A stretch of 64,000 nucleotides of DNA. Origin: Halorarum halobium. GTDB taxonomy: Archaea > Halobacteriota > Halobacteria > Halobacteriales > Haloferacaceae. A model generated the notes under the pieces. The model saw nothing but the letters and a program-made list of their open reading frames with translations, did not search any database and was not told where the DNA came from. A program made the position numbers and the translations under genes. The stretch spans positions 868,001 to 932,000 of the forward strand of contig NZ_CP134949.1 of assembly GCF_032116555.1 (NCBI RefSeq). The letters are read 5' to 3'. Positions within the stretch are counted from its first letter, which is position 1, and each line of letters opens with the position of its first letter. Below are positions 4,301 to 61,884 of this stretch, one piece after another.

Positions 4301-4489
4301 GAGATCCCCGAGGCGGACGGCGGCTCCGCGACGGCCGAATCACCCAACGACGACGGGCCGATGGCCGACGCGGTGGACGAACTCATCGCCAACGGCGAGT
4401 CGCCCGAGTGTCCCGACTGCGGCAGCATGACGCTGTACTACTCGGAGGGCTGCAAGACGTGCGAGTCCTGCGGCTGGTCCGAGTGCTAG
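1364..4489 (+). CDS. nrdJ: Adenosylcobalamin-dependent (class II) ribonucleotide reductase with C-terminal TSCPD-like region and Zn ribbon
   Basis: PNSPTLMNAG, LSACFV, TNPCGEQPL, EACNLG, IAPTGT, ISKTVN; C-terminal CPDC...EGCKTCESCGWSEC. Confidence 0.96.
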   Translation: MSRADLGADELDLPIKRTEGNTLRERLTGNAYDNILPARYLRKDADGNLTETQEELFVRVAENIALAEAVYEADKRGVEVTVTPDQLKPDHPRRDELAAEVFGKGVSPEDDAETTLSVHNVNKFAYDTVVPDLPDDVAAHVEDVADEFRELMEQLSFMPNSPTLMNAGDELQQLSACFVDSPGDDIDDIHQTAKEAAQVFQSGGGMGYAFWKLRPYGDAVGSTGGIASGPITFMRTFDQMCETIAQGGARRGAQMGVMRVSHPDVIQFIHAKNKDVSLANTLKLNDPDDYTHTSFADALEEARELIGEDGKVPKHLRNAVEGHLSNFNISVGVTDDFMDALEAGEEFTFTNPRTEEPHVATPETKELYDMFGLGEHVEVGETLSVPAEALWEHIVAGAHENGEPGIVYLERINKLHSFDVEEHPEHRILATNPCGEQPLEEYEACNLGHINLSTLAATDAPDWRVWSEEHAGEFDSQADAVEVFLEDAMDWEAFDHRIAYGTRFLENVVTMSDFPVEEIERKVREMRKIGLGVMGLAQLYIQLGVRYGSDVGNEIADQLMTHINHGSKWTSHVLAEQRGSFDDWDDSKYANPTEHAEWFEQYVGEDPEQWADGFPIRNHNTTTIAPTGTTSMVGNTTGGCEPIYNVAYYKNVSDDVQGDEMLVEFDDYFLRTLEANGIDVEAVKREAQEQMAANEFDGVDGLDTVPDAIGELFVVTGDLTAKDHAGVQVACQAGVDSAISKTVNAPNDSTVEDADEVFRYIYEHGGKGVTYYRDGTRSKQVLTTRADNAEFADESEAAEALVDQISEVFGGIEGFLENEDVRAAVDAEVEGLLEAADGEQPTVDYTEKRPRPDSLRGITQLIQTGYGKVYVTINEDPSTGEPFELFANIGHSGGFTNSFTESLAKVISTALRSGVDPSEIVDELQGTRSPKVAWDKGEQIQSIPDAIGTALRRYLDDEVDKGYPDQQTLDEVEEDAGGPEIPEADGGSATAESPNDDGPMADAVDELIANGESPECPDCGSMTLYYSEGCKTCESCGWSEC

Positions 4490-4581
4490 CTCGTCGGTGA
4501 GTTCGGGTCGCTGATCGGTTCGTCTTCTTTTGGCGTGTCTCCTGCTGTGGGCAGCACCACAGCCACCGTGGTCACGACCGC

Positions 4582-4791
4582 GGAAGCCCCCGCGGCTCTC
4601 GGCTCGGGGGCCTCGCTGCGCTTCTCGTCGCTCGCTACACTCGCTCCTGCGGTGCTTGCGTCGTCCGCCGTTCACGAGAGCTCTGCTCTCGTGAGATCGC
4701 GGGAGTGTCCCGCGAACGATGCAAGCACCGCAGCGACCGCAGGGAACGAGGAGCGCAGGGAGGCGCGCGAGCGCAGAAGCCGGGGGCTTTC
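4582..4791. repeat. Family A palindromic intergenic element (self-inverted copy)
   Basis: Ends GAAGCCCCC / GGGGGCTTTC; internal inverted CTGCGGTGCTTGCGTCGT / ACGATGCAAGCACCGCAG; central twin hairpins CACGAGAGC-TCT-GCTCTCGTG and TCGCGGGA-GTG-TCCCGCGA. Confidence 0.8.
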
Positions 4792-4909
4792 GACCCAGAC
4801 GCGATCGTACCGCATACCTCGACAAAACTGGCACGGACGGCAGGACTACCGAGGACGACGAGCGAGCGAATCGCCAGCCGTAAATCCACGACCGCCCCAA
4901 CCACGGACG

Positions 4910-5398: not shown

Positions 5399-6508
5399 AT
5401 GACCCAGGTCGAGTCCGACGCCGACCTCTCGACGCTCGACCGCGCCGTCGTCAACGCCTTCCAGGGTGGGTTCCCCGTCGTCGCAGAGCCGTGGGAGCCG
5501 GCCGCAACGGCGCTCCGCGAGCGCGGCGTGGACGTGACCGGCCCGGAGCTGCTCGCGGCCGTGCGGGACCTCGACGAGCGCGGCGTCCTCTCGCGGTTCG
5601 GCGCGCTCGTGAACGCCGAGGAGATCGGCGGCACCGCGACGCTCGTCGCCATGCACGCCCCGCCCGAGCGGTTCGAGGCGGTCGCGGAGACGGTGAACGG
5701 CTACCGCGAGGTGGCCCACAACTACGAGCGCGAGCACCCCCACCTCAACATGTGGTTCGTGCTAAGCGTCGCCAGCGAGCCGCAGGGGGCCTCGGACGGC
5801 CGCGGTGGAACCGCGAGCGAGCGCGTCGAGGAGGTGCTCGCGAGCATCGAGGCCGACACGGGCCAGGAGACGTACAACCTTCCCAAGCAGCGGGAGTTCC
5901 ACGTCGGCGCGAAGTTCCTGCTGGACGGCCCCGTGTCGGCGGGCGATCTGGACCTCTCCGGGCTCGGACCTGACGTGACTCCCACCGACGGCGGAACGAT
6001 CACCCCGGACGAGCGCGACCTCGTCGTGGAGATCCAGGGCGGCCTCCCGATCACCGAGACGCCGTACGCCGACGTGGCCGCCGAACTCGACCAGCCGACC
6101 GAGTGGGTCGTGGAGACGATCAAGCGGTTCGACCTCGAGGGGAAGGTGCGCCGCGTCGGCGTCATCCCGAACCACTACGCGCTCGGCTACACCGAGAACG
6201 GCATGACCGTCTGGGACGTCCCCGACGACGTGCTGGACGAGGTGGGCGAGACGGTCGCGGAGCTGGGCTTCGTCACCCACTGCTATCACCGCCCGCGCCA
6301 CGAGGGCGTCTGGCCGTACAACTTCTTCGCGATGACCCACGGCCGGGACGAGGCCGAGAGCGAGCGCCGGGTCGAGCAGGTGCGCGAGACGATGACCGAG
6401 TTCTGGGACGTCGCTGACGGGGACTGGGACACGCTGTTCTCGACGCGCATCCTGAAGAAGACCGGAATCAGGCTGGCCGAGCGCGCCGACGTGGAACCCG
6501 AGGAGTGA
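5399..6508 (+). CDS. ahbAB: Siroheme decarboxylase, fused AhbA/AhbB (NirDL-like, tandem AsnC-like domains)
   Basis: Two repeats with VAHNYEREHPHLNMWFV and VTHCYHRPR...WPYNFFAMTHG; lies upstream of sirC and hemA. Confidence 0.88.
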   Translation: MTQVESDADLSTLDRAVVNAFQGGFPVVAEPWEPAATALRERGVDVTGPELLAAVRDLDERGVLSRFGALVNAEEIGGTATLVAMHAPPERFEAVAETVNGYREVAHNYEREHPHLNMWFVLSVASEPQGASDGRGGTASERVEEVLASIEADTGQETYNLPKQREFHVGAKFLLDGPVSAGDLDLSGLGPDVTPTDGGTITPDERDLVVEIQGGLPITETPYADVAAELDQPTEWVVETIKRFDLEGKVRRVGVIPNHYALGYTENGMTVWDVPDDVLDEVGETVAELGFVTHCYHRPRHEGVWPYNFFAMTHGRDEAESERRVEQVRETMTEFWDVADGDWDTLFSTRILKKTGIRLAERADVEPEE

Positions 6509-16204: not shown

Positions 16205-16404
16205 GAACCTCTTTTGCGGGGGTCCTCCTCACGCGGGCCGGCTCTGCCGGCCCACGTTCGTCGAACCCCCGCAAAACCCGTTCATGCTGTGGGATTCCTG
16301 TGGAATCCCACTGCTGACGGGAAATCTTCGATTTCCCGTAATGCCAAAATGCCGCGAGCAGCGGTCGGCGCGGCGAAGCCGCGCCTCCCTCGCTCGCGGT
16401 ACTG
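16205..16404. repeat. Family B ~200-nt multi-hairpin element, copy 1
   Basis: Aligns end to end with 43351-43549; TTTTGCGGGGG (16212-16222) pairs with CCCCCGCAAAA (16266-16276); four further hairpins. Confidence 0.88.
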
Positions 16405-16440
16405 ATACTGGTGGGACCGTACCGCCGAGAGTTCCGGTCT

Positions 16441-37329: not shown

Positions 37330-37623
37330 CGGCGCGTGACGGCGAGCCCCAGGGGCGAGCAGACGCGCGCGAGGGACGAGCACCGGAGCGTTCGCGACCG
37401 GAGGGAGCGCACGCGAGGAGCACAGGAGGTTGGGAAGGGTGAGGTGTGGTTGGGTGGGACTGAAAGGGGCCGCGGCTGTCGGCGACGGCGGACCCGTCAA
37501 GCACCGTGGTTCGAGAGAGCGGAGCTCTCTCGTCATCACGAAAATCTTCGATTTTCGAACGACAGCGAGCTTGCGAGCGAGGAGCGCAGCGGCCGCACCG
37601 AGCCGAGAGGAGCGGGGGCTTTC
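37330..37623. repeat. Family A element, reverse orientation, carrying the twin-hairpin module
   Basis: Core at 37452-37476; 70-nt block 37494-37563 identical to 57066-57135; ends GCGGGGGCTTTC. Confidence 0.88.
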
Positions 37624-43350: not shown

Positions 43351-43549
43351 GAACCTCTTTTGTGGGGCATGTCCTCGCGCGTCGGCTTCGCCGACGCGCC
43401 GCGGCCAGACCCCCCGCAAAACCCGTTCGTGCTGTGAAATTCCTTTGGAACCCCACTGCTGACGGGAGATCCTCGATTTCCCGTACTGCCAAAACGCCGC
43501 GGGCAGTAGTCGACGCGGCTTCGCCGCGCCTCCCTCGCTCGCGGTACTG
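43351..43549. repeat. Family B multi-hairpin element, copy 2 (5' end duplicated at about 43320-43345)
   Basis: Colinear with 16205-16404 from GAACCTCTTTTG to CCTCCCTCGCTCGCGGTACTG. Confidence 0.88.
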
Positions 43550-43685
43550 CTGGTGGTTCCGACTGCAGTTCGAACCGGTATCGGCCGGCGGAAAGCCGGT
43601 TCCGACCGGAGAGGGTGGCCGACCGAACCGGACCGTGAGGCCGGAACCGTCCCCAGTTTTACGCGCTCGCCGCCACGGACGGAGT

Positions 43686-47752: not shown

Positions 47753-48841
47753 ATGACCCGAGCCGACCTCGACCCCATCGCCGGCCTGCACCACGTGACG
47801 GTGATGTCGGGCGACCCGGACGGGAACGTCCGGTTCTTCCGGAACGTCCTCGGCCTGCGACTCCTCAAGCGGACCGTCAACTTCGACGACGTGACCACCT
47901 ACCACCTCTACTACGGCGACGAGACGGGCACGCCCGGCACCGTCTACACGGTGTTCCCGTTCGGCGACGGCCGGCGCGGACGGAACGGGACCGGCGAGGT
48001 GTCGGCCACGGCGTTCGCGGTCCCCGAGGGGAGCCTCGACTACTGGCGCGAGCGCCTGGAGTCCCGCGGCGTCGCGGTCCGGGAGCCCGAGGAGCGCTTC
48101 GGCGCGCGGGTGCTCCCGTTCACCGACCCGGACGGACAGGAACTCGAACTGATCGAGCGCGGGGCGCAAAGCGCCCCGGACGGACGCGGGAGGAGCCCGC
48201 GGGAGCCGTTCGACGACGTCGAGCCGTGGGCCGACTCGCCGGTGCCGGCGGACCACCAGATTCGCGGCTTCCACGGCGTCACCCTCAGGCTCTCGGAGGT
48301 CAATGCGACGGCCGACCTGCTCACGTTCGTGGGATACGAGGAGGGAGCGGCCGCGGGCGACCGAACCAGGTTCCGCGCCGCCGGCGACCGCGGCGCGGTC
48401 GTCGACCTCGTGGAGCGACCGGGGATGGCCCCCGCCGGTGGCGGCATCGGCTCGGTCCACCACGTCGCGTTTCGCGTGCCCGACGACGATGCGCAGGCCG
48501 CCTGGCAGGAGACGCTCCGCGACCGCGGCCAGCAGGTGACGCCGGTGAAGGACCGCCAGTACTTCCGCTCGATCTACTTCCGCGAGCCCGGCGGCGTGCT
48601 GTTCGAGTTCGCCACGGAGGGGCCCGGCTTCGCGGTCGACGAGCCGGTCGGAGCGCTCGGCGAGGAACTGAAACTCCCGGAGTGGCTGGAGACGCACCGC
48701 GAGCGCATCGAGTCGGCGCTGCCGGCGCTTTCGGCCGCCGACGAACCGGCAACCGGGGGCGACGCCGGGCACGACACAGACGGTGGCACCGAGCACGAGG
48801 CCGACGCGGACCCGACGGAGGAGGTGGCGACCCATGAGTGA
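47753..48841 (+). CDS. Ring-cleaving dioxygenase (VOC family, MhqO/PcpA-like)
   Basis: GLHHVT, KRTVNFDD..YHLYYG, VHHVAFR, DRQYFRSIYFREPGGVLFE. Confidence 0.92.
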   Translation: MTRADLDPIAGLHHVTVMSGDPDGNVRFFRNVLGLRLLKRTVNFDDVTTYHLYYGDETGTPGTVYTVFPFGDGRRGRNGTGEVSATAFAVPEGSLDYWRERLESRGVAVREPEERFGARVLPFTDPDGQELELIERGAQSAPDGRGRSPREPFDDVEPWADSPVPADHQIRGFHGVTLRLSEVNATADLLTFVGYEEGAAAGDRTRFRAAGDRGAVVDLVERPGMAPAGGGIGSVHHVAFRVPDDDAQAAWQETLRDRGQQVTPVKDRQYFRSIYFREPGGVLFEFATEGPGFAVDEPVGALGEELKLPEWLETHRERIESALPALSAADEPATGGDAGHDTDGGTEHEADADPTEEVATHE

Positions 48842-56677: not shown

Positions 56678-57228
56678 GAAAGCCCCCGCCTGGCTACGCT
56701 CCCGCGGCACGCTCCGTGCTCCTCGCGCTCGCTTCGCTCGCGCTGTGGTGCTTGAGGCGCCGGGGTTCGCGTACCCAGCCGGCCCCTTTCAGTCCCACCC
56801 ACCCCGACCGCCCCGCACCACAGCCTCCCCAGCCGATTCGCTCGTCGCTCCGCTCCTCGCTCATCCCTCGCGCGCGCCGACCGCACCGGTTGGACAGAGT
56901 CACGTGGCGCGCGGCGGTCGAGCGCTAGCGAGACCGCTCGTGCGAGGGACGAGCATCGCAGCGACCGAAGGGAGCGAGAAGCGCAGGAGGCTGGGGAGGA
57001 TGAGGTGCTGTGCGGTTGCGGTGGGTGGGACTGAAAGGGGCCGCGGCGCTCGACGACGGCGCGGACCGTCAAGCACCGTGGTTCGAGAGAGCGGAGCTCT
57101 CTCGTCATCACGAAAATCTTCGATTTTCGAACGACTCCGCTCGCGTGAGCCTCGCACGAGCGGTCTCGCTAACGCTCGACCGCCGCGCGCCACGTGGCTC
57201 GTCCAGTCGAGTGCGGTCGGCGCGTGCA
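56678..57228. repeat. Composite family A locus: forward copy plus a reverse copy enclosed by long inverted repeats
   Basis: Cores at 56781-56800 and 57023-57047; 47-bp inverted repeat 56901-56947 / 57150-57196 with one mismatch. Confidence 0.9.
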
Positions 57229-57331: not shown

Positions 57332-58588
57332 ATGACAGCCGATCGCACGAGCGCCGGGTTCAAGCGGCGAACCCGTCTCGCCGAGGCGCGAACGACCCTT
57401 CTCGAGGCCGTCCAGCGCCACGGGCGAACCGAGCAGGTTCCCCTCACGGAGGCCGACGGCCGCGCGGTCGCCGGGACCGTGAGCGCGCCGCGGGCCGTCC
57501 CGGCCTACGACCGGGCCGCGATGGACGGCTGGGCGGTGCGAGCAGAGGACACCTTCGGCGCGTCGGGGCGCTCGCCGGCGGTGCTCCGGGCGAGCGACGG
57601 CGCGGCCGTCCCGAACGGGGCCGTGCGCGTCCAGACCGGCGAGGAACTGCCCGACGGCGCGGACGCCGTCGTCGCGGTCGAGGGGACCGAGGAACTCGGC
57701 ACCGAAGTCGAGGTGTTCGACGCCGTCGCGGCCGGCGAGAACGTCGGCGAGACGGGCGAGGACGTCACGGCGGGCCAGCCTCTCCACGAGCCGCCCCGTC
57801 GCCTCCGGCCCTCGGACCTCGGCCTGCTGAAATCCGTCGGCCTCGACACGGTCGAGGTGTTCGAGCGGCCGCGCGTGTCCGTCGTCCCGACCGGAGAGGA
57901 GCTCGTGCAGGCCGATCCTCGGCCCGGCGAGACGATCGAGACGAACGGGCTGACCGTCTCCCGGCTGGCCGAGCGCTGGGGGGCCGACGCCACGTACCGG
58001 GAGGTCGTCACCGACGACGAGGACGCGCTGGCGGCGGCGGTCGAGCGCGACCTCGCTCACGACGTGGTCGTCACCACCGGCGGCTCCTCGGTGGGCGAGC
58101 GCGACCTCGTCCCGGACGTCGTCGCGGACCTCGGCGAGGTGCTGGTCCACGGGGTCGCGGTCAAGCCCGGGCATCCGGTCGCGCTCGGCGTCGTCGAGGA
58201 CACGCCGGTCGTGATGCTCCCCGGCTACCCGGTGTCCTGTCTCGTCACCGCCGTCCAGTTGCTCCGCCCGGTGTTGAAGCGCGTCGGCGGTCTCCCCGCC
58301 GGCCCGTCCCCGACACGTCGGGCGACCCTGACCGGGAAGGTCGCCTCGGAGCCCGGGATCCGGACGTTCGCACGGGTGACTCTCTCGGACCGCTCGGACC
58401 GCTCGGACCGCTCCGACCCACCGGGCGGTGACGGTCCCGCGCTCGCGGCCGACCCGGTCAGGGCCTCGGGGGCCGGCGTCCTCTCGTCGGTCGCGCTGGC
58501 CGACGGTTGGGTCGTCGTGCCCGAGTCGCGGGAGGGTGTCGACGCCGGCGACGCGGTCGACGTCGAACTGTGGGAGGTGGACGAATGA
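57332..58588 (+). CDS. moeA1: Molybdopterin molybdotransferase
   Basis: RAAMDGWAV, TGEEL, TGGSSVG, VKPGHP, LPGYPVS. Confidence 0.92.
   Translation: MTADRTSAGFKRRTRLAEARTTLLEAVQRHGRTEQVPLTEADGRAVAGTVSAPRAVPAYDRAAMDGWAVRAEDTFGASGRSPAVLRASDGAAVPNGAVRVQTGEELPDGADAVVAVEGTEELGTEVEVFDAVAAGENVGETGEDVTAGQPLHEPPRRLRPSDLGLLKSVGLDTVEVFERPRVSVVPTGEELVQADPRPGETIETNGLTVSRLAERWGADATYREVVTDDEDALAAAVERDLAHDVVVTTGGSSVGERDLVPDVVADLGEVLVHGVAVKPGHPVALGVVEDTPVVMLPGYPVSCLVTAVQLLRPVLKRVGGLPAGPSPTRRATLTGKVASEPGIRTFARVTLSDRSDRSDRSDPPGGDGPALAADPVRASGAGVLSSVALADGWVVVPESREGVDAGDAVDVELWEVDE
58384..58418 (+). repeat. In-frame 9-bp tandem repeat (CTCGGACCG)x3 plus a partial copy
   Basis: Encodes SDRSDRSDRSD in MoeA1. Confidence 0.8.
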
Positions 58589-60636
58589 GCGACGAGCGCG
58601 ACGACGGCGGGAACGACCGCCACGACGGCGACGGTCACGATCACGGCGCGGTCGACGCCGGCGACCACGGCGACCACGGCGACCACGGCGACCACGGCGA
58701 CCACGGCGACCACGGCCCGGACCGGAAGGAGTTCCGCGACCTGGCCACGCCGGAAGCGGCCCACGAGGCGATCGCCTCGCTGGACCTCGCGTCGGACCCT
58801 GAATCCGTCCCGCTCGCCGAGGCACGGGGGCGGGTGCTCGCCGAGCGCGTCGACGCCGACCTCGACGTCCCGGGGTTCGACCGGGCGTCGATGGACGGCT
58901 ACGCGGTCCGAGCGCGGGACACGTTCGGGGCCGACGAGGCCGACCCCGCGCGACTCGAACTCGCGGGCGTGGTCCACGCCGGCGCGGAACCCGAGGTGAC
59001 AGTCGAGTCCGGGACGTGTGCGGAGATCTCCACGGGCGCGGTGATGCCCGACGGGGCGGACGCGGTGGTGATGGTCGAGCGGACGAGCCAGTCCGGGGAC
59101 ACGATCGAGATCCGGACCGCGGTCACGCCGGGCGAGCACGTCATGTTCGCGGGCGCGGACGTCGCCGCCGGCGCGCGGGCGCTCGGCCCCGGCACGGAGT
59201 TGACGCCACGCGAGGTCGGCCTGCTCTCGGCGCTCGGACGCGACGAGGTCACGGTTCGCGGAAAACCGACGGTCGGGGTCGTCTCCACCGGCGACGAACT
59301 GGTCCGGCCGGGCGGGGAGCTCCACAGCGAGCGCGGGCAGATCTACGACGTGAACAGCTACACCGTCGCCGCGGGGATCGAGGAGGCCGGCGGCGAACCG
59401 CGCCTCTACCCCCACGCCGGCGACGACTACGAGGAGATGGAGCGCCTGCTCGTCGAGGCCAGCGAGGAATGTGATCTCGTGCTCTCCTCCGGGTCGACGT
59501 CGGCCTCGGCGGTCGACGTCGTCTACCGCGTCATCGAGGCGCGCGGCGACCTGCTGCTCCACGGCGTCGCGGTCAAGCCGGGCAAGCCGATGCTCGTCGG
59601 GCGCGTCGGGGAGTCGGCGTACGTCGGCCTCCCGGGCTACCCCGTCTCGGCGCTCACCATCTTCCGGACGTTCGTCGCGCCGGCCATCCGCGAGGCGGCA
59701 GGGAAGCCGGAGCCCCGGACCGCGACCGTCGCGGGGACGATGGCCGTTCGGGAGCGCTACGCGGAGGGCAGGATGCGGCTCATGCCCGTGGGACTGGTCG
59801 AGCGCGGGCCGGCAGGCCCGGACGGCGGCGGCGACGCCGCCGGAGCCGGGAACGTTCTCGTCTACCCAGTCGACAAGGGCTCGGGCGCGACGACGAGCCT
59901 CGTCGAGGCCGACGGCGTCGTGGTCGTCGACCCGGACACGGAGTATCTCGCCGAGGGCGAGGCGGTCGAGGTGCAACTGTTCTCGCCGGACGTGCGCCCG
60001 CCGACCGCCTTCGGCGTCGGCGAGGACGACCCGGCGCTCTCGCGCCTGCTCGACCGGCTGGACCGGCCGCGCTACCTCCCGGCCGGGAGCCGCGGCGGGC
60101 TCCGCAGACTCCGGGACGGCGTCCCGGACTTCGCCGTCGCGGCCGGGCCGATCGAGCGGGACCCCGACGCGGTCGACCTCGGCGGCTGGACCCGCGAGTG
60201 GGGACTGGTCGTCCCCGCGGGCAACCCGGACGACGTGACGGGGATCGGCGACCTCGCGGACCGCGAACTCCGGTTCGTCAACCGCGACGCGAACTCCGGG
60301 CTCCGGACGAGCCTCGGGAACGCGGTCGCCGACCTGGCGGCCGAGCGCGGCGTGGACCGACACGAACTCGTCGAGGCCATCGACGGCTTCGACCGCTCGG
60401 TCCGGGCCCACGAGTCGCCCGCCCGGCGCGTGTTCGGGGGCGATGCGGACGCGGGCCCGGGCCTGCGCGCGACCGCGGAGAAACTCGGTGCCGGATTCGT
60501 CTCGCTCGGCGAGCAGGACGTCCGCGTGCTCGCCAACCCGGGCCGCGTGGAGAAGCCCGGCGTCATCGAGCTCCGCGAGGTCCTCCGTGACTTCGACGAC
60601 GTGCTGGAGGGACTGGCCGGCTATGGGGGCGAGTAA
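58585..60636 (+). CDS. moeA2: MoeA with C-terminal periplasmic-binding-protein-like domain
   Basis: RASMDGYAV, STGDEL, SGSTS, LPGYPVS; C-terminal FVNR..NSG.R; ATGA-coupled to moeA1. Confidence 0.92.
   Translation: MSDERDDGGNDRHDGDGHDHGAVDAGDHGDHGDHGDHGDHGDHGPDRKEFRDLATPEAAHEAIASLDLASDPESVPLAEARGRVLAERVDADLDVPGFDRASMDGYAVRARDTFGADEADPARLELAGVVHAGAEPEVTVESGTCAEISTGAVMPDGADAVVMVERTSQSGDTIEIRTAVTPGEHVMFAGADVAAGARALGPGTELTPREVGLLSALGRDEVTVRGKPTVGVVSTGDELVRPGGELHSERGQIYDVNSYTVAAGIEEAGGEPRLYPHAGDDYEEMERLLVEASEECDLVLSSGSTSASAVDVVYRVIEARGDLLLHGVAVKPGKPMLVGRVGESAYVGLPGYPVSALTIFRTFVAPAIREAAGKPEPRTATVAGTMAVRERYAEGRMRLMPVGLVERGPAGPDGGGDAAGAGNVLVYPVDKGSGATTSLVEADGVVVVDPDTEYLAEGEAVEVQLFSPDVRPPTAFGVGEDDPALSRLLDRLDRPRYLPAGSRGGLRRLRDGVPDFAVAAGPIERDPDAVDLGGWTREWGLVVPAGNPDDVTGIGDLADRELRFVNRDANSGLRTSLGNAVADLAAERGVDRHELVEAIDGFDRSVRAHESPARRVFGGDADAGPGLRATAEKLGAGFVSLGEQDVRVLANPGRVEKPGVIELREVLRDFDDVLEGLAGYGGE
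58660..58713 (+). repeat. Perfect in-frame tandem repeat (GGCGACCAC)x6 encoding (GDH)6
   Basis: Six exact 9-mers read directly. Confidence 0.95.
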
Positions 60637-60639
60637 TCC

Positions 60640-60765
60640 GCCGTGCGGTGGCGCGGCGGCCGCGCCCCGTGCGCGGCCGAACCGCGCGAGGGATGAGCAC
60701 CGCACGCGAGCGAAGCGAGCGAGGAGCGCAATCGGCTGGGGAGGCCGTGGTGTGGTGCGGTTTCA
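60640..60765. repeat. Partial family A element, reverse orientation
   Basis: CGAGGGATGAG and AATCGGCTGGGGAGGC (60730-60745) are reverse complements of motifs in the 6592 and 56678 copies. Confidence 0.75.
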
Positions 60766-60867
60766 GGTGAGCTAGCAGCAGCTAGGTTCGTCCGCTTCAC
60801 AGCCCACCGAACGACGGGAAACACGGGCCGAGAACACGGCACCCGACGAAGAACGAGAACCCGCAGT

Positions 60868-61884
60868 CTACGGCGTCGGAGCGGCCTTCTGGAGCGCCGT
60901 CTCGGCGATGTTTCCGCCGTAGTCGGCCGAGCGGGACACCGAGTCGACGATGAGTCCGAGCAGCTGTGCCCGTGCCGGCTCCTGGTCGCGGAGCAGCGCG
61001 TCGATGCTCCGGGCGCGCTCGTCGATGTCGAGCACCGAGGCGCGCGCCTCGTTGGCGAGGTCGGTCGCCTCGCGGTTCTCGTCGGCAAACAGCGCGTCCA
61101 TCGCCAGATCGACGACCTGGCGGGCGTCCGCCTCGATCTCCTCGATGGCCTCGATGACCTCCGCCGGGACCTCCGCGTCGCCGTCCTCCTCCAGTAGCTG
61201 GAGCGTCAGGTGGGCGATCTTCGTCGCGTGGTCGCCGACGCGCTCAAGCTGGCGGGCGCTCGCGTGGTAGTCGAAGCAGGTCTCCCGACCGACCCCGAGC
61301 TCCTCGGCCGCCTTCGGGGTGCGGAGCGTCGCGCGGAAGATGCGCGAGACGACCTTGTGGAGCCGGTCCACGTCGTCGTCGCGCTGGACGACGTCCTTGG
61401 CCATGTCCGCGTCGCCCTCCGCGAGCGCGGCGACCGCGTCCTCCAGCATCGAGAGCGCGATGAGCCGCATCCGGGTGACGGCGTTGTGGATCGAGAGCTC
61501 CGAGGAGTCGAGCAGGTCGCGGATGACGACGCGCTCGCGGGTCTCCTCCAGCACCTCGAGGCCGACCAGGCTCTGGGTGCAGTCGCGGATCGTCCGTCGC
61601 TGGTCGTTGCTGATGCGCGAGGTCTCCAGCGAGATGATGTCGAACCCGGAGACGTACATCGTCATGACCGCGCGCGTCAGTTCGTCGTCCTCCAGGTCGC
61701 CGATGTCGAGCGAGCCCTCGGCCCGCTCCTCCTCGCTTCTGGGCGTCAGAAACAGCGAGTCGTCCTCGGGGTAGAACTCGACGGTGCTGCCCGCGCTCAC
61801 GCCGTTCTCGGTCGCCCAGTCCTTGGGAATCGACACGGTGTACGTGGACCCGCCCGTCACCTGCACCTTCCTGGTCTCGACCAT
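60868..61884 (-). CDS. phoU: Archaeal PhoU regulator (AbrB-like N-terminus plus PhoU repeats)
   Basis: RKVQVTGGSTYTVSIPKDWA; DDDVDR; LERVGDH; RSADYG.NIAE. Confidence 0.92.
   Translation of the reverse strand: MVETRKVQVTGGSTYTVSIPKDWATENGVSAGSTVEFYPEDDSLFLTPRSEEERAEGSLDIGDLEDDELTRAVMTMYVSGFDIISLETSRISNDQRRTIRDCTQSLVGLEVLEETRERVVIRDLLDSSELSIHNAVTRMRLIALSMLEDAVAALAEGDADMAKDVVQRDDDVDRLHKVVSRIFRATLRTPKAAEELGVGRETCFDYHASARQLERVGDHATKIAHLTLQLLEEDGDAEVPAEVIEAIEEIEADARQVVDLAMDALFADENREATDLANEARASVLDIDERARSIDALLRDQEPARAQLLGLIVDSVSRSADYGGNIAETALQKAAPTP

Follow-up and report, generated by a model that had tools for sequence, protein, structure and literature searches.

The window analysed here is a 64,000-nt stretch of the Halorarum halobium genome (G000). 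Three unrelated genes within it, all on the plus strand, carry a pair of small hairpins inside the reading frame: the gene for an MhqO-like glyoxalase/ring-cleaving dioxygenase (47753..48841), that for an AhbAB/NirDL-like siroheme decarboxylase (5399..6508), and moeA fused to a PBP-like domain (58585..60636, with an inferred start codon). The copy in the dioxygenase gene (48158..48205, plus strand) is recognised by the covariance model R1 and comprises 16 codons by the family register, its exact ends being uncertain by 1–2 codons; hairpin 1 (48160..48178, plus strand) has an 8-bp stem and a 3-nt loop, and hairpin 2 (48185..48201, plus strand) represents the tandem-G·A hairpin described below in a decayed state. 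The copy in ahbAB (5774..5818, plus strand), also recognised by R1, comprises 15 codons and has a decayed hairpin 1. In moeA a probable old sister-form copy lies at 59803..59844 (plus strand), with hairpin 1 at 59805–59820 and hairpin 2 at 59826–59842. Re-reading of the window bears out the preliminary description of the three segments in every detail of position, stem pairing, linker, flanking sequence and peptide, and a strict scan for two perfect hairpins (at least 6 bp) joined by GACGG, which finds five places in 3.68 Mb, has the dioxygenase and moeA sites as two of them.

The three hairpin pairs had been taken for in-frame additions to the genes, and they are indeed insertions of 36–42 bases relative to orthologs, with net gains of 42 nt in the dioxygenase gene, 39 nt in ahbAB and 36 nt in moeA. 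The 14 additional amino acids of the dioxygenase are missing in 15 of the 16 homolog rows and present only in G002, a member of the same genus. In AhbAB 13 amino acids are missing in 8/8 rows (four orthologs and four paralogs), both same-genus genomes included, and MoeA is 12 amino acids longer than in G001, G014 and G024, with 14 extra residues in G002 and a partial loop in G009. Equally long ortholog loops devoid of the palindromes, which would have refuted the insertion reading, are not the pattern observed. One to three host codons seem to have been lost at the window sites. A position in surface loops is predicted from AlphaFold models for two of the proteins: the dioxygenase insert follows the strand at 130–136, with pLDDT below 50 at 138–143 and 146–151, and the AhbAB insert forms a strand-to-helix turn with pLDDT below 50 at 127–137; for MoeA it is suggested by the variability of the loop, and the insert directly precedes the MoeA_C Pfam match. 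Folding alone is weak evidence for the three sites (z = −2.7 for the dioxygenase, +0.7 for ahbAB and −1.7 for moeA).

A search starting from the dioxygenase allele of G002 uncovers a wider family: the present genome has two further clean copies, one within a PolX-like gene and the other within that of an S9 peptidase, and a common core emerges, CGAGGCGC-NNN-GCGCCTCG. This core is hairpin 1; a short linker and a variable hairpin 2 follow, giving an element of about 45–57 nt found in Halobacteriales. A scan of one genome per species yields at least 120 matches, and 76 of the 80 examined belong to Halobacteria. Of 151 Halobacteriales genomes, 80 contain the bare palindrome, with 335 matches in all and 0 to 20 exact copies per genome; none contains its reversed control. 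All 8 matching plasmid records are haloarchaeal, and a scan of viral contigs gave no match. The present genome has a low copy number, with two exact palindromes and five R1 matches above 30 bits among the 150 of ca. 10,900 candidates scored; copies above 30 bits lie also within purL and a helicase-nuclease gene. The 20 top-ranking families that a direct-repeat finder reports for the window do not include the three copies, and Rfam gives no match in the window at the gathering score and one chance match in 10 loci.

Scored with R1, for which only 56 copies of foreign species were used, the dioxygenase site comes first in the window at 38 bits; the ahbAB site follows in second place at 19 bits, just over the background of 17 bits. 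Membership of the latter is settled by its homologs, since AhbAB proteins of Halococcus, Halostagnicola and Natrinema carry near-consensus inserts of the SEARSAS type in the same loop. The dioxygenase and ahbAB segments are copies of the family, and the moeA segment is likely an older sister form. The shuffling control proposed earlier does not refute the family. An HMM derived from foreign copies and applied at a threshold of 12 bits finds four places in 2009 real ORFs, a set that left out the dioxygenase, against 0, 0 and 0 in codon-shuffled and 0 and 1 in synonymously shuffled sequences. The moeA site has no R1 match at E ≤ 5. That the sites are chance hairpins in GC-rich, naturally variable loops is hardly credible: the MoeA loop ranges from 8 to 38 amino acids and the folding z-scores are weak, as this explanation would have it, but for the dioxygenase and ahbAB it is already refuted by the indels, the palindrome count compared with its reversed control, the R1 ranks, the AhbAB homologs and the HMM shuffles.

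At moeA alone, chance hairpins keep a small but live share of the probability. Very probably, judging by architecture and homologs in place of a model match, the copy in the window is a shrunken or decayed old sister form. L327 and L328 have a longer, perfect twin hairpin in the same MoeA loop, with the same arm sequence and AG start, and L516 has the canonical element there; two different hairpin-1 types occupy this hypervariable loop among the homologs, of which 113/120 were scored for length. A PDB search with the moeA fragment, its reading frame unchecked, gave no match, and a metagenome scan for the moeA-type hairpin gave mostly hairpins of non-haloarchaeal appearance among the 80 loci read out of 120. 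Several of these metagenome contigs (among L335–L409) have plentiful perfect hairpins with GNA loops, some beside tRNA-like sequence. Elsewhere in the gene, at 58638–58710 of the window, a 9-nt tandem repeat gives the predicted N-terminus of MoeA a run of Gly-Asp-His.

On the 3' side of hairpin 1 there is a GA, followed by a few free bases and then hairpin 2, whose stem reads CGAG-CGG...CCG-CGAG and contains tandem G·A mismatches. The GACGG linker, read as Asp-Gly, had been regarded as a defining part of the module; it turns out to be one variant among others, as the base after GA is C in 31, A in 30, G in 10 and T in 5 of 76 loci. Hairpin-2 pairs that were not fixed by the search covary in 43/48, 33/48 and 41/48 copies, against shuffled means of 20.8, 17.3 and 15.3, counts that are inflated by related copies; a second count gives the same picture, and a third outer pair shows no covariation (3/48). 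One subtype has a terminal GACG, as 15 of the 19 copies with an AC end show, the GAC end being paired inside hairpin 2, and the short subtype ends otherwise. The two ends of the element are not inverted copies of each other. Two structural ideas were abandoned or weakened. A K-turn was rejected on inspection, the G·A pairs forming a symmetric loop with no bulge when set against the K-turn motif; a DNA mini-hairpin with a GNA triloop lost ground once the loop was left free, GNA being found in 28/72 loops.

The element reads as the peptide SEARSAS(D/E). All 76 haloarchaeal loci are read in a single sense frame, 72 by codon score and four by inspection (L063, L069, L074 and L090); the first three of these, once candidates for antisense copies, lie in sense orientation within a 299-aa ORF. 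In a set collected blind to orientation (n = 92), 42 copies are clearly coding and all 42 use sense frame 1; of the remainder, 30 either score weakly or lie between genes or at gene ends, and for 20 the orientation is unclear. The exception is L166, in another sense frame. For 91 of the 113 copies examined G000 has a spanning homolog, relative to which 62 are longer by a net 13–21 amino acids. As counted in 39 copies, the used frame is the only hydrophilic and acidic one of the six (1% hydrophobic and 23% acidic residues, against 5–28% and 0–10% in the other five). Stop codons cannot explain the frame bias, because three other frames carry 0–1 stops and a fourth two. Selection on the peptide may suffice, and a strand-specific mechanism would also be compatible with the sense bias. 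The product is predicted to be a disordered loop rich in Ser, Glu, Asp and Gly. Of five RNA runs with a 0.09 share, the three examined give only contigs of a relative, probably DNA; no joint in them skips the element, which does not in itself speak for transcription. Three copies (L173, L177 and L214) sit between genes of the same orientation, where they reach or span a start codon.

Comparisons with congeneric empty alleles give the size of single insertions: 57 nt net with 2 nt of ambiguity at L088 (against 24/24 loci shown), 51 nt at L169 (against 18/18 loci), 51 nt at L106, 48 nt at the L056 site, 48 nt with a 10-nt direct repeat at L044 and L076, and 54 nt with a 6-nt direct repeat at L059. 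Junctions are variable, with 0–10 nt of microhomology and no fixed target or duplication; they were read from species pairs rather than strains, so that the element ends are blurred by later drift. No conserved upstream target of 4–5 nt is found, only a bias to GA, with a D/E codon at 25 of 49 sites. A 2-nt CG duplication was also considered; L088 and the sister units described below from IS ends agree with it, the family as a whole does not (C at position −2 in 10/76 loci, G in 14/76). In L298 (G245:C67) a shortened element is tandemly amplified between its direct repeats, adding 66 nt in frame to what we take to be an acyl-CoA dehydrogenase-like gene.

The same sites are used again and again. 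Grouped by eye, the 76 loci collapse to 49 sites, and distant genera are filled at the same positions in purK, trpA, purL, ileS and others, gene names being recognised from peptides. In the AhbAB tree, inferred by a quick method with the loop excluded from 70 rows (20/20 filled, 42/115 empty and 8/98 intermediate homologs), the 20 filled rows require 14 changes, at least five of them forced by supported branches, gains and losses being indistinguishable. Such patchy filling could reflect either an old insertion with losses or an exchange of alleles. A reading in which the filled alleles of a small number of old insertions passed between genera by short-tract recombination (homing-like conversion), some being precisely lost again and little new insertion taking place today, is distinctly unlikely. 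It would account for the distant genera sharing sites, for the predominance of one common subtype among the filled AhbAB alleles and for the related inserts in the MoeA loop of several families. It sits poorly, however, with filled AhbAB loops that differ in net length (13, 14 and 15 amino acids) and age, with the two hairpin-1 types in the MoeA loop, and with lineage-restricted copies, present in 1/25 loci shown at L088 and 1/19 at L169. The PolX-like copy of the present genome (G000:C1:3243009-3243064) has a counterpart of the same subtype and site in L061, a metagenome-assembled Halobacteriales genome. A different insert of eight residues occupies the same AhbAB loop in 96 homologs (P0128–P0240, many from Halorubrum).

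Resident copies also appear to change in place. L059 and L482 have a common site, length and hairpin 1, and their hairpins 2 are unrelated; at one Haloarcula site intact, compensated, decayed and empty alleles are found side by side. Hairpin 1 of the dioxygenase copy differs from the G002/consensus form by one compensated pair (A-T to G-C, both changes non-synonymous), and the same compensated pair arose in L309. After insertion, third positions in the stems vary less than flanking synonymous sites (0/50 against 0.34, and 0.11 against 0.30, counted on rows still matching the hairpin, decayed rows being left out), and the loops, unlike the stems, vary more. Conserved stems, a recurrent compensated pair and the sense-strand bias are what one would expect of a structure selected by the host in mRNA or single-stranded DNA of coding regions, such as a pause, stability or protein-binding signal. 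We nevertheless regard such a role as very unlikely: the choice of rows favours intact stems, self-repair or conversion of palindromes yields the same pattern, the unit is absent from most orthologs and its copies decay, and there is no Rfam match.

A relation to insertion sequences has more to recommend it. Hairpin 2 is very like the apical arm found in the right-end palindrome of IS605-family elements (L452, L461 and L467), and a tnpB gene carries one copy (L117) within its 3' end; another (L187) lies upstream of what we take to be a tnpB-like start. The element might thus be a minimal derivative of IS200/IS605, a PATE reduced to its termini and moved by strand-specific peel-and-paste transposition by TnpA. 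The 52-bp terminal-only PATEs described in PMC3119063 and the strand preference of TnpA, as far as the account in PMC3333891 goes, would suit this explanation, which we consider unlikely though the strongest of the competitors. Against it stand the lack of a conserved 4–5 nt upstream target beyond the GA bias, the direct repeats of 6–10 nt at some sites and the lack of association with TnpA: none was found in G000, across 151 genomes the presence of the element shows no link to that of TnpA (35/36/45/35, p = 0.42, related genomes not being independent), and 20 tnpA loci have no full R1 match above 20 bits, hairpin 1 matching there only sister units inside IS ends. The 3' ends are likewise variable and differ from TCAC or TCAA, which we take, partly from the IS loci themselves, to be the IS ends. 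Sister twin-hairpin units of about 50–56 nt, with CG on both sides, occupy IS605 end palindromes in L456, L458, L459, L461, L466 and L467; those of L452 and L454 are empty.

The reading we prefer, and hold to be somewhat better than an even proposition, is that the sites are in-frame insertions of a non-autonomous, likely selfish unit of two hairpins, dispersed in Halobacteriales, likely copied from a folded single-stranded template and predicted to be translated. The analysis shows the family, the indels, the one sense frame, the reused sites and the variable junctions, whereas the enzyme, the intermediate and translation are inferred. Host repair, template switching or an HUH nuclease of low specificity, supplied in trans, would join a folded single-stranded copy to a break or an exposed single strand through 0–10 nt of microhomology. 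An insertion would survive only if it preserves the frame and adds a hydrophilic peptide to a tolerant loop, so that the same loops would be hit repeatedly. Resident copies would then exchange hairpin 2, keep their stems for a while and decay to loops rich in Asp and Gly, with moeA as a putative late stage of decay. A bolder version, possible though doubtful, sees the element as a homing-like micro-parasite of protein loops—about 50 nt long and enzyme-free, re-invading a limited set of sites across the order, always in the sense strand, swapping a hairpin 2 borrowed from IS605 and decaying to hypervariable acidic Asp/Gly loops; many such haloarchaeal loops would then be fossils of selfish DNA.

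Rickettsia palindromic elements (RPE) are known here from summaries in later papers of work reportedly published by Ogata in 2000 and 2002. As described in PMC10969869 and PMC2229807, they are dispersed palindromic repeats found in frame in unrelated conserved genes and encoding a conserved peptide. The preliminary description had proposed a haloarchaeal equivalent, and the proposal holds for an element in frame in unrelated genes whose orthologs are free of it. On those accounts, the likeness extends to dispersal, palindromic structure, a conserved peptide and the lack of an identified enzyme. Unlike RPE (ca. 150 bp), however, the haloarchaeal element is about 50 nt long and consists of two small hairpins, the second modular; it spans an archaeal order with 0–20 exact copies per genome and its sites are reused across genera. 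At 45–57 nt and haloarchaeal, it falls outside Rickettsia RPE proper, these being set beside it by description, not sequence. An archaeal case of palindromic repeats fused into protein genes, cited in PMC2229807, offers a precedent for such fusion from a different lineage, on the strength of that citation's description.

Among haloarchaeal repeats, PMC3119063 describes the SMRs of Haloquadratum walsbyi, which are 80–110 bp long, insert in IS605 end palindromes and are mobilised in an enigmatic way; SMR-A has prominent terminal inverted repeats, and PATEs have a conserved target oligonucleotide. Like these, as that text presents them, the element is haloarchaeal, enzyme-free and palindromic, has a copy in an IS605 end palindrome (L117), as SMRs do, and matches the 52-bp PATE in size. 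It differs in lying in frame within genes, copies of this kind not being mentioned for H. walsbyi as far as that account goes, whose Tables S8–S9 could hold related sequences. It has neither the conserved target of 4–6 nt that PATEs have by the 5' end with no duplication, nor the terminal inverted repeats and fixed target duplication of MITEs and SMRs (the duplication being a MITE trait), its junction repeats being 0–10 nt. The bacterial CGTC-tagged REPs, small GC-rich stem-loops with no linked transposase and in part intragenic (as outlined in PMC3733652), resemble it in the stem-loops and in the GACG end of one subtype. In that outline they have an unpaired tag, loops of 4–5 nt and head-to-head dimers, whereas the GAC of the element is paired and its two hairpins are unlike; no unpaired CGTC tag stands beside an 8–9 bp stem with a 4–5 nt loop. 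The element thus works like RPEs and lacks the defining traits of RPE proper, MITE/SMR, PATEs and CGTC REPs. A literature search, with most subscription papers and the Haloquadratum supplements beyond its reach, found no description of the family. What stands out most is that the same loops are reused across the order and that hairpin 2 is exchanged at a fixed site. The element makes a source of new acidic loops traceable in haloarchaeal proteins, the stages from fresh through converted to decayed being visible at the same site, and offers a small, defined substrate, in a group with good genetics, for studying how enzyme-free palindromic repeats such as RPEs, CGTC REPs and SMRs move. For annotation, peptides of the SEARSAS type are inserts, not conserved protein motifs.

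Kinship with the intergenic twin hairpins of the window, also suggested earlier, is plausible as an architectural link, the two differing in sequence. One intergenic family shares a GGCGC-NNN-GCGCC core with the element; R1, on the other hand, does not match the D11 repeats (16263–16412 and 43408–43557) at E ≤ 5. Neither an enzyme nor an Rfam family was found for the intergenic mosaics. Five of their hairpin motifs lie inside ORFs in 0/14, 0/18, 0/10, 0/6 and 0/8 cases, compared with 4/4 for hairpin 1. Mosaics of intergenic hairpin modules are found at 16263–16412, 43408–43557, 37390–37560, 56900–57130, 4480–4800 and 60630–60870, and their modules turn up again throughout the genome in changing order, always outside predicted ORFs.
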